Below are positions 60,328 to 62,442 of a stretch of DNA of 64,000 nucleotides, piece by piece (the stretch's first letter is position 1; each line of letters starts with the position of its first letter). The DNA comes from Escherichia coli. GTDB taxonomy: Bacteria; Pseudomonadota; Gammaproteobacteria; Enterobacterales; Enterobacteriaceae. A model generated the notes under the pieces. The model was given only the letters and a program-made list of their open reading frames with translations. It did not search any database and was not told the DNA's origin. Location: NCBI RefSeq assembly GCF_003790525.1, contig NZ_CP033635.1; one strand, written 5' to 3'. Both the position numbers and the translations under genes were made by a program.

Positions 60328-62442
60328 TCAATCAGCCACTAATAGCGGACTAGGGATACCAGATGATGAAACAAACAGCCCTTTTACGGCACGGGTTGCA
60401 GCCACATGCAGTAACGCGCGCTCATTAAATAATGCATCACGCTGTTCAACGGGATCATCGGATGCTAATGCTTTTATTTCCGGCACAACGCCTTCGTTAA
60501 TCCCCACCAGGAACACATACTGGAACTCAAGCCCTTTAATACGGTGCATCGTTGCAACTCGCACGCCTGGGCGTGCATCGCTGTCACCGCTATCATTGCC
60601 TAAATTAAATGTCTCAATTCCGGCGTCATTGAGTGCTGATGCGTAGCGGTCGCAAGCATGTTTAGTACGCGCAGTAATGCAGATATCCTGAGAACGAACC
60701 TGATTCGCCAGCAATGCCTGAATTTGCTTGACGAGTGTTGCAGCCTCTTCTTTGAAATCTGCCGCATGCGTAATCATGGGCTTTTCCCCGTGCAGTAATG
60801 ACAAATAATCATTACTGGTATCCGCTTCGCCATCGAGGTTATCAACCTTCACACCAGTTAACAGCCCAACAGCAAATTGACGCGTCTCTTCTGTGGTCCG
60901 ATAGTTAATCTTCAATTTTTTACTGCGACGACCACGGACGTTAATACCACACTGACCAAGAACGACCTTATTGCGATAAATACGCTGATGCCCATCCCCG
61001 ACAATAAACAGATCGTTGGGCGACTCGGGAACCAGGCTGCGAATAAGAGTAAATGCCGGGGCACCGATATCTTGAGCTTCATCGACGACAATACTGCTAT
61101 AAGGTAGTTGGACCTGCTTTTCTTTAAACAGAACAATAGCCTCATGCATGGCATCGCCCATTTCGCGCAGTTTGGCACGCGCCATTTGTGCTCTGAATTC
61201 TTCGAAAACTGGCCAGATTTTCGCCCGTTGAATACGGGATAACGCTGTACCACGTCCAACCCGGCTGACTTTGAGGTATTCCTCCCGGGTGTAAACCGCA
61301 TTTGGCTGGACAACGCGTTGCCACTCTTCAGCATAGAAATTGTCAGGTAGCCCCAGTTCGGCAGGTGCCTGCTGCAAGGCATAGTTCCAGCATTTACGTC
61401 GCCCTTCATCGCTGTCGTATACCACGCGGAAATCATAACCGTGGCGTTTTAGTTGGTCGCTCATCCAGGCATCAATGTTAACGACGTCAATACGCGCCAT
61501 CTCTTCTCGCGTACACAACCGCTGGAGATTAGCGCGAATATCTGCCGCCAGGTTACGCGTAAAGGTCGTGAAAAGTACCTTCTTACCGGGTTTATCTACC
61601 AGACGCTGAGATAACCACCGCGCACGGTGCATTGCAACAACCGTTTTCCCTGTACCTGCACCGCCCAGTACTCGTACCGGACCATTAGCGGGCGACTCCA
61701 CCAGTTTTCGCTGGCTCGGATGCAGAAATACACGCCATTTTTCTAAAGGCGCATTAAGCATCTGCAACAGCTCCTGTTCATTTTCAACGACATAGAAGCG
61801 ACGTTTACTTCGTTCAATCGCCTCCATAAAGTCGTTGGTATCAACAGGCTCATCACGATGATCGTTAAACTCTTCCAGCACTTCCTGGTAATCCAGCCCT
61901 TCTGCCAGCCAATGCAGGGGTTCCCAGGCTTCTGCTGGCATTATGCTTTCAAGTTGATTAAGCCCGGCTTCATCGGTAAGCGCCATCACCTGATCAATAA
62001 AGACAGGCGGCACACCCAGGGCCAGAATCTGTTCCGCGCTGTAAGCTGCGAAGAGTTTCGGTTTATCAACCACTGTTTCCGCTGCCGGTTTGATATAGCT
62101 AATATCAATAACCTGAATTGCGCCGGTAACCGGGTGAATTGAACAATCATGCCGCCGCGCCCAGTCGTATGCTTCGTCGTGTTTATCCACCCACATCAGC
62201 ATATACAGGGCACCCTGTTCAGGTTTCAGAACAATGCCGCGATAAGTTTGATCGATTCGCACCGAATGGACATTTTTACTGCGCGCATCGTGGATCTTTT
62301 CATAGTTAAGTCCATTACTGGTCGGGTCCTGACGGAATTTGGAGATGAATTCCTGCACCTTTTTTTGCTGTGCTTTTGGGATCCGCGCGAATGCGCCCAG
62401 AAAACCATCAGAAAGTGCCACCTTGGGCGTTTGCACCGTCAT
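60328..62442 (-). CDS. UvrD-like superfamily 1 helicase with a distinct approximately 280 aa N-terminal domain (intact counterpart of the K-12 yjhR remnant?)
   Basis: 704 aa; Walker A VLGGAGTGKTVVAMHRA, Walker B/motif II IVVDEAQDIG, C-terminal UvrD_C-like MHRIKGLEFQYVFLVG; its ATG overlaps the stop of the upstream ORF (ATGA at 62439-62442). Confidence 0.8.
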   Translation of the reverse strand: MTVQTPKVALSDGFLGAFARIPKAQQKKVQEFISKFRQDPTSNGLNYEKIHDARSKNVHSVRIDQTYRGIVLKPEQGALYMLMWVDKHDEAYDWARRHDCSIHPVTGAIQVIDISYIKPAAETVVDKPKLFAAYSAEQILALGVPPVFIDQVMALTDEAGLNQLESIMPAEAWEPLHWLAEGLDYQEVLEEFNDHRDEPVDTNDFMEAIERSKRRFYVVENEQELLQMLNAPLEKWRVFLHPSQRKLVESPANGPVRVLGGAGTGKTVVAMHRARWLSQRLVDKPGKKVLFTTFTRNLAADIRANLQRLCTREEMARIDVVNIDAWMSDQLKRHGYDFRVVYDSDEGRRKCWNYALQQAPAELGLPDNFYAEEWQRVVQPNAVYTREEYLKVSRVGRGTALSRIQRAKIWPVFEEFRAQMARAKLREMGDAMHEAIVLFKEKQVQLPYSSIVVDEAQDIGAPAFTLIRSLVPESPNDLFIVGDGHQRIYRNKVVLGQCGINVRGRRSKKLKINYRTTEETRQFAVGLLTGVKVDNLDGEADTSNDYLSLLHGEKPMITHAADFKEEAATLVKQIQALLANQVRSQDICITARTKHACDRYASALNDAGIETFNLGNDSGDSDARPGVRVATMHRIKGLEFQYVFLVGINEGVVPEIKALASDDPVEQRDALFNERALLHVAATRAVKGLFVSSSGIPSPLLVAD

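Follow-up and report, generated by a model that had tools for sequence, protein, structure and literature searches.

The window analysed here, a stretch of 64,000 nucleotides (nt) from the Escherichia coli contig NZ_CP033635.1, contains on its minus strand a gene (60328..62442, taken from the list of open reading frames, ORFs) that encodes a protein of 704 amino acids (aa), followed by a stop codon and identical to WP_000218180.1, for which the public databases hold generic names only. We regard it as almost certain that this coding sequence is armD, which comes fourth and last in the anti-phage operon known as ARMADA type II, and at the same time that the N-terminal domain of its product has a fold of the RelE/ParE type. 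Three modules make up ArmD: residues 1-113 form a domain of RelE/YoeB fold, residues 136-232 a helical connector, and residues 233-704 a UvrD/GajB-like superfamily 1 (SF1) motor. The explanation that best accounts for the material as a whole, to which we assign a probability of about 0.55, combines this identity and this architecture with an N-terminal domain that would act as a YoeB-type ribonuclease (RNase) gated without an antitoxin. The RelE-like domain of ArmD is already known as a prediction from the 2025 preprint that defined ARMADA type II (bioRxiv 10.1101/2025.09.15.676423), whose supplement gives as its basis an HHpred match to RelE3 (3BPQ_D, E = 0.0085). The present analysis adds stronger structural evidence, the conservation of a putative catalytic set, the finding that no antitoxin gene is present, and a survey of gene context.

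The RelE/YoeB-like domain is encoded by 62104..62442 on the minus strand. An AlphaFold2 (AF2) model of the N-terminal region has a mean predicted local distance difference test (pLDDT) score of 93.1 and a predicted TM-score (pTM) of 0.88, and it consists of a β-strand (residues 7-11), two α-helices (12-20 and 23-38), three further strands (58-62, 67-72, and 79-87), a third helix (88-97), an extra β-hairpin (98-102/109-113), and a helical region (136-249). In a Foldseek comparison of this model with the PDB, the top 50 matches all belonged to the RelE/ParE superfamily (YoeB, RelE, YafQ, HigB, ParE, the Txp40 toxin domain, and the CARF-RelE protein Cami1, including its ribosome-bound form 8phj_X), with target TM-scores of 0.7-0.8 and whole toxins aligned; a second structure-comparison method likewise returned the RelE/ParE superfamily as the sole top result. 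The arrangement is the compact β-α-α-β-β-β(-α) fold of this superfamily and superposes on solved toxins, and the model supports a predicted RelE/YoeB toxin-like fold for residues 1-113. The original prediction, made from the letters of the window, had proposed that an SF1 helicase carries a RelE/ParE-type fold in its N-terminal part, had suggested AlphaFold and Foldseek as a check, and had named a winged helix or a UvrD 1B/2B insert as outcomes that would speak against it; neither appeared in the fold comparison, and the proposed fold is now backed by two independent structural comparisons together with the conservation of a YoeB-like catalytic set. The names given by NCBI and JGI to split-off fragments of ArmD homologs are also those of RelE-family toxins.

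Direct sequence searches gave a fainter picture. Pfam returned no significant match on residues 1-240, either in the whole protein or when residues 1-250 were scanned alone, and an MCM4_WHD match that appeared in the Pfam/NCBIfam scans of the N-terminus was judged spurious. The NCBIfam Txe/YoeB model (TIGR02116) aligned with residues 24-70 at E = 0.061 (13.5 bits, compared with a cut-off of 51.8). A phmmer search of residues 1-250 against PDB sequences yielded nothing relevant, only a chance match to rubredoxin, and an hhalign comparison of the family with E. coli RelE was uninformative (E = 0.7). Searches of PDB sequences with a family profile found the archaeal RelE (aRelE, 1wmi) at E = 0.041 across its full length and Staphylococcus aureus YoeB at E = 0.027; in those searches RelE/YoeB proteins at E values of 0.03-0.1 stood among unrelated proteins that scored equally well, e.g., Ceg14 and the RSV phosphoprotein (E = 0.0046). 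When the Pfam ParE_like model (PF24732) was applied to the N-termini of homologs, 7 of 40 matched at E ≤ 1e-3 and 19 of 40 at E ≤ 0.1. Because the family-profile matches are marginal and mixed with spurious ones, the fold assignment was not rested on sequence. A chance resemblance of the motif, with no toxin-like fold behind it, would fit these marginal scores (the RSV phosphoprotein included) and the empty Pfam result on the ArmD N-terminus; it is contradicted by the high-confidence model, by two structure-comparison methods that place only the RelE/ParE superfamily at the top, and by the independent HHpred match in the preprint (bioRxiv 10.1101/2025.09.15.676423), and we consider it already refuted and its probability negligible.

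A search with residues 1-250 identified 2223 homologs at E ≤ 1e-3 among representatives of 50%-identity clusters, and nearly all the full-length ones are about 700 aa long. Forty homologs of residues 1-250 were aligned (alignment A1), and conservation was counted in 142 representatives from many phyla, obtained by clustering at ≤50% identity. An hhalign alignment of the family with E. coli YoeB pairs E48 with Glu46, R62 with Arg59, and R68 with Arg65, and these three pairings recur when the family is aligned with S. aureus YoeB by hidden Markov model (HMM), so that the glutamate and the two arginines of the YoeB active site all have counterparts; in the alignment to archaeal RelE, R68 is paired with Arg65 and H88 with Arg85. 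In YoeB, Glu46 serves as the general base and His83 as the general acid, with the transition state bound and stabilised by two arginines, Arg59 and Arg65 (PMC3814384). In the ArmD family, 137 of the 142 representatives keep E48, 139 keep R62, and 140 keep R68; H88, the putative counterpart of His83, is kept in 139 and D89 in 133, and the E-R-R-H set as a whole is intact in 135, a result that answers the original call for a look at catalytic residues across homologs. H88, which directly follows strand β4, is invariant in alignment A3, and W94, A95, and Q110 are also invariant in the N-terminal domain. To judge from the sequences, the conservation of E48, R62, R68, and H88 is the pattern of a putative active site. 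The segment quoted in the original prediction, VHSVRIDQTYRGIVLKPEQGALYMLMWVDKHDEAY (residues 58-92; 62167..62271 by computed position, minus strand), comprises strands β2-β4 and the start of helix α3 and contains R62, Y67, R68, H88, and D89.

That prediction had also described the first 280 residues of the protein as something other than a standard helicase accessory domain. The unannotated extension is real, as the Pfam result on residues 1-240 indicates; it ends near residue 232, not 280, and residues 233-281 (61600-61746) are part of helicase domain 1A and contain the GTGKT of Walker A (263-267). The toxin-like fold itself accounts for only about 113 aa. Next comes a linker (residues 114-135; 62038..62103, minus strand) that varies in length and is poorly conserved, with no majority residue in alignment A1 and no regular secondary structure in the model, and after it a separate helical connector domain (residues 136-232; 61747..62037, minus strand) with a conserved LGVP (G143 invariant, P145), P169, and G182. 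No known structural relative of the connector (136-232) was found, and the pTM of 0.88 obtained for the two-domain model suggests that it packs on the toxin-like domain. The remainder of the protein (residues 233-704; 60331..61746, minus strand) is an SF1A helicase core of the UvrD/GajB type by Pfam and PADLOC: UvrD-helicase matches residues 241-490 (7e-23) and UvrD_C residues 509-693 (4.5e-13), and the best PADLOC model is GajB (2.6e-36), aligned from residue 240. The Walker A motif GGAGTGKT, located by its motif position, spans residues 260-267 (61642..61665, minus strand) and includes K266, a residue on which defence by the published system depends.

The assignment of the gene to ARMADA type II rests on gene order, on the PADLOC and RefSeq annotation of an identical locus, on 99% protein identity, on the numbering of K266 and D454, and on the description of ArmD in the preprint. 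A stretch of about 5 kb that includes armD is 100% identical at the DNA level to E. coli SMS-3-5, and a match to it is present in 545 of 5426 complete genomes. In SMS-3-5 the locus consists of four co-directional genes, of which the one for WP_000218180.1 is the last; they encode, in order, a 952-aa SNF2 helicase (DrmD/BrxHII-like), a 1640-aa methyltransferase (DrmMI/type IIG-like), a 2113-aa DEAD-box helicase (DruE/DrmA-like), and the 704-aa UvrD-like protein. PADLOC assigned the first three to DrmD (1.4e-99), IIG/DrmMI, and DruE/DrmA, so that annotation and PADLOC together reproduce the order by which ARMADA type II is recognised (BrxHII/DrmD-like, PglX/DrmMI-like, YprA-like, then armD), and Druantia III (DruH-DruE) lies directly upstream of armABCD. 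At the protein level, ArmD combines a GajB/UvrD core with a RelE-like fold, is identical to the protein of the O157 lineage at 693 of 697 residues (99%), and carries K266 and D454 under the same numbers as the published ArmD mutants, as expected of an ARMADA II ArmD. The ArmD described for ARMADA type II in E. coli NCTC 12900 and in EDL933 O-island 172 (OI-172) is of the same family, with the same armA-armB-armC-armD order, an adjoining Druantia III, the same Walker numbering, and the same predicted N-terminal RelE-like domain.

The order of genes was also examined over a wider range of organisms, with a degenerate DNA pattern for W-V-D-x-H-D-[DE]-A-x-x-W-A applied to species-representative genomes. 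At least 120 loci from many phyla matched this signature. Among the matches listed, an in-frame ORF was present at 118, and 67 of the 74 complete ORFs were 676-772 aa long; an ArmC/DruE (YprA)-like gene lies directly upstream on the same strand at 97 of the 111 loci with enough upstream sequence, and the commonest junction between the armC-like and armD-like genes is a 4-nt overlap (30 loci). RelE-helicase fusions also occur outside YprA contexts, at about one in eight loci among the matches listed. The gene follows a split DrmA plus DrmB in a DISARM-like setting (L099), a NERD-helicase (L090), or a large UvrD-like protein in which no nuclease domain was detectable in a PADLOC search (L030); among other homologs, one follows a UvrD-PD-(D/E)xK protein (L004), some apparently stand alone (L005/L006 and L010), and in the stand-alone homolog P0104 a Lys replaces the Glu at position 48. 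The impression given by a hand-picked sample of distant homologs, that the contexts are mostly non-ARMADA, was discarded on account of the bias of that sample and the 97 of 111 listed loci that follow a YprA-like gene. In Aeromonas sp. CU5 (L002, 9001-11130) an armD remnant beside an insertion sequence (IS) transposase exists as two pieces, a UvrD helicase of 599 aa and a RelE-like fragment of 93 aa that carries the NCBI annotation 'type II toxin-antitoxin system RelE/ParE family toxin'. This shows that gene fragments can yield misleading toxin-antitoxin annotations.

YoeB (the toxin of the type II YefM-YoeB pair), RelE, and YafQ are ribosome-dependent mRNA endonucleases. The ArmD domain shares about 15-18% identity with YoeB in the structure-search alignments and departs from it in several ways. 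YoeB is a free protein of 84 aa, whereas the RelE-like fold of ArmD is a domain of a 704-aa helicase without an antitoxin gene; ArmD has an extra helix and β-hairpin (residues 88-113), an equivalent of the C-terminal Tyr84 of YoeB is not conserved, and the ARMADA II host system causes no growth arrest. No small co-oriented ORF that could encode an antitoxin is present in the operon according to the ORF list, which sets the locus apart from a type II toxin-antitoxin system. Another parallel is Cami1, the CARF-RelE ancillary effector of type III CRISPR systems, in which, as in ArmD, a RelE fold is joined to a regulatory domain within an immune system. The regulator of Cami1 is a CARF sensor of cyclic oligoadenylate, while ArmD has an SF1 helicase and a helical connector instead; Pfam detected no CARF domain in ArmD, and no cyclic-nucleotide machinery was found in the operon. 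By analogy, Cami1 may be taken as an earlier case of an immune effector in which RelE is fused to a sensor. For the helicase core the best HMM matches are those of GajB, as noted above, but these leave the N-terminal extension uncovered, and ArmD follows a YprA-like helicase, unlike GajB, which is paired with GajA; no GajA-like OLD-family nuclease gene is present in the armABCD operon in the SMS-3-5 annotation, which separates it from Gabija.

The explanation favoured here holds that the N-terminal domain would be a catalytically competent YoeB-type endoribonuclease, in which Glu48 would act as the general base and His88 as the general acid, and the transition state would be stabilised by Arg62 and Arg68. 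Having no antitoxin, it would be restrained in cis, by the connector or the motor, or by co-translated ArmC, with which ArmD would be co-produced and probably act. The domain would be licensed only when the ATP-dependent motor takes hold of phage nucleic acid already marked as non-self by ArmA, ArmB, and ArmC, much as the RelE domain of Cami1 is licensed by the binding of cyclic tetra-adenylate (cA4). Cleavage of phage RNA would then take place locally (on ribosome-bound mRNA in coupled transcription-translation, on nascent RNA, or on R-loops), and a system directed at DNA would gain an arm directed at RNA without a shutdown of the host. That the domain is an active, helicase-gated RNase effector seems to us to have slightly less than an even chance, and we are more tentative still about the fuller proposal, in which the SF1 motor and ArmC jointly gate an active RNase that has no antitoxin, and RelE-helicase fusions away from YprA-like genes are perhaps autonomous, single-gene defence modules.

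The published biology constrains this scheme. Defence against HK022 requires all four arm genes, the ArmD substitution K266A abolishes it and D454N weakens it, and infected ARMADA II cells remain impermeable to propidium iodide with normal metabolism (bioRxiv 10.1101/2025.09.15.676423). Since defence is non-abortive, any RNase activity of ArmD must be local or tightly limited. The abortive-infection-type mechanism that the original prediction had attached to the toxin-like fold is not supported, for the same four-gene system, with an ArmD that is 99% identical, was found in experiments to protect its host directly and to leave infected cells intact. A second preprint describes the same locus as EDL933 O-island 172, and RelE is absent from its main text (bioRxiv 10.1101/2025.09.22.677730). 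Neither ARMADA preprint contains a report of ribosome-dependent mRNA cleavage by ArmD or of its toxicity on overexpression.

Several points weigh against an active RNase of the YoeB type. The conclusion of the authors that ARMADA II defence is direct and non-abortive (bioRxiv 10.1101/2025.09.15.676423) is unexpected for a translation-poisoning toxin, and a protein of 704 aa may be unable to reach the ribosomal A site. The ArmD residues mutated in that preprint are those of the Walker motifs only, and in EDL933 challenged with Bas18 the deletion of armD had less effect than the deletions of armA, armB, and armC (bioRxiv 10.1101/2025.09.22.677730). The putative equivalence of H88 with YoeB His83 draws on the position after strand β4 and on the aRelE alignment, Y92, which the original prediction had taken as the RelE tyrosine, is frequently Met in the homologs of alignment A1, and none of the curated RelE/ParE HMMs (Pfam PF05016, PF05015, PF06769, and PF24732; NCBIfam TIGR02116) reached threshold on ArmD.

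Some of these points would be accommodated if the domain were a non-catalytic relic of a toxin, reused for docking or nucleic-acid binding (as an anchor for ArmC, or in holding RNA or single-stranded DNA). The close, translationally coupled linkage to ArmC-like genes at the 97 of 111 listed loci, the non-abortive phenotype, the milder armD deletion phenotype in one study (bioRxiv 10.1101/2025.09.22.677730), and the invariant W94, A95, and Q110, which look structural and not catalytic, are all consistent with such a role. The positions of YoeB catalysis, on the other hand, are among the most conserved of the domain (137-140 of 142 each), a pattern rare in binding modules, and homologs exist without a YprA partner. 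We therefore think this reading improbable, and still the best placed of the alternatives to an RNase. A little less probable again is that the RelE-fold domain is a DNA nuclease which nicks or cuts single-stranded DNA exposed by the motor, as a one-chain version of GajA plus GajB. The partner motor is of a DNA type (UvrD/GajB), the rest of the system targets DNA, with a methyltransferase and a Vsr-like nuclease in ArmC, and DNA targeting would suit the non-abortive phenotype; moreover, metal-dependent DNA cleavage is reported for Agrobacterium YoeB (bioRxiv 795211), a RelE-fold protein whose structure (6n90) is among the Foldseek matches. Against it, the Glu/Arg/Arg/His arrangement is the acid-base arrangement of the RNase T1/Sa type, which works through the 2'-OH of ribose, a group absent from DNA (PMC3814384), and a predicted active nuclease is already present in ArmC.

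A ParE-like function, in which the domain would poison gyrase or another DNA-topology enzyme without cutting nucleic acid, is very unlikely. ParE toxins are not known to have the Glu/His acid-base pair, which is conserved in the ArmD family, and one would expect toxicity or abortive infection from the poisoning of gyrase, contrary to the ARMADA II phenotype; what speaks for it is that the sole Pfam model with significant matches to the homologs, PF24732, bears the name ParE_like.

The link of ArmD to ArmC, on which the favoured explanation draws, can be read at the gene junction. The 3' end of armC, which encodes a YprA/DruE-like DEAD-box helicase of 2113 aa, occupies 62439..64000 on the minus strand and leaves the window there; it was identified through the annotation of the identical SMS-3-5 locus, and the full ArmC has PADLOC matches to DruE (4e-104) and DrmA. 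The stop codon of armC and the start codon of armD share an ATGA overlap (62439..62442, minus strand), which, as read in the sequence, indicates translational coupling of the two genes. At the extreme C-terminus of ArmC, about 76 aa (62493-62720, minus strand) match the end of the Zorya type II protein ZorE, in its C-terminal part (PADLOC ZorE2, 1.3e-9; NCBIfam anti-phage_ZorE, 4.6e-5), and this segment may be a module common to both systems; Zorya II is reported to co-localise with the armABCD island in many E. coli (bioRxiv 10.1101/2025.09.15.676423, 10.1101/2025.09.22.677730). Two antisense ORFs on the plus strand inside armD (61858-62142 and 62149-62538) were rejected as genes for want of support.

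On the other side of armD, a stem-loop, GACCAGGAGC-CGAAAC-GCTCCTGGTC, lies 17 nt past the stop codon (60286-60311, minus strand) and has a perfect 10-bp stem and a 6-nt loop. It has no U-tract after it and was missed by a simple terminator scan, and it is probably the 3' end structure of the operon. No Rfam family was found within 58000-64000. Beyond the stem-loop lies a convergent ORF of 216 aa (59164-59814, plus strand), in a low-GC patch of about 37-38% GC, with a weak Pfam UDG match (E = 0.004) and no PADLOC or NCBIfam match; RefSeq names its product 'uracil-DNA glycosylase family protein' or 'hypothetical', depending on the genome. At about 57200-59000 the core genome (nanC, nanM, nanS) gives way to the defence island. 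A GC-rich patch (0.55) in this region has ORFs overlapping on both strands, and in the identical SMS-3-5 region PGAP calls the sialate O-acetylesterase gene incomplete and the next ORF frameshifted; it looks like a decayed mobile-element remnant.

The armD locus is carried by about 10% of complete E. coli genomes, and ARMADA II is a major barrier to phages in enterohaemorrhagic and other E. coli. Within the system ArmD is the only component with a predicted RNA-cutting module, and the analysis supplies candidate catalytic residues and linkage data with which the activity and the regulation of the domain can be tested. If the domain is active, E48, R68, and H88 would be the obvious positions for point mutants in dissecting the mechanism, and a growth-arresting toxin fold would prove usable in non-suicidal immunity without an antitoxin.

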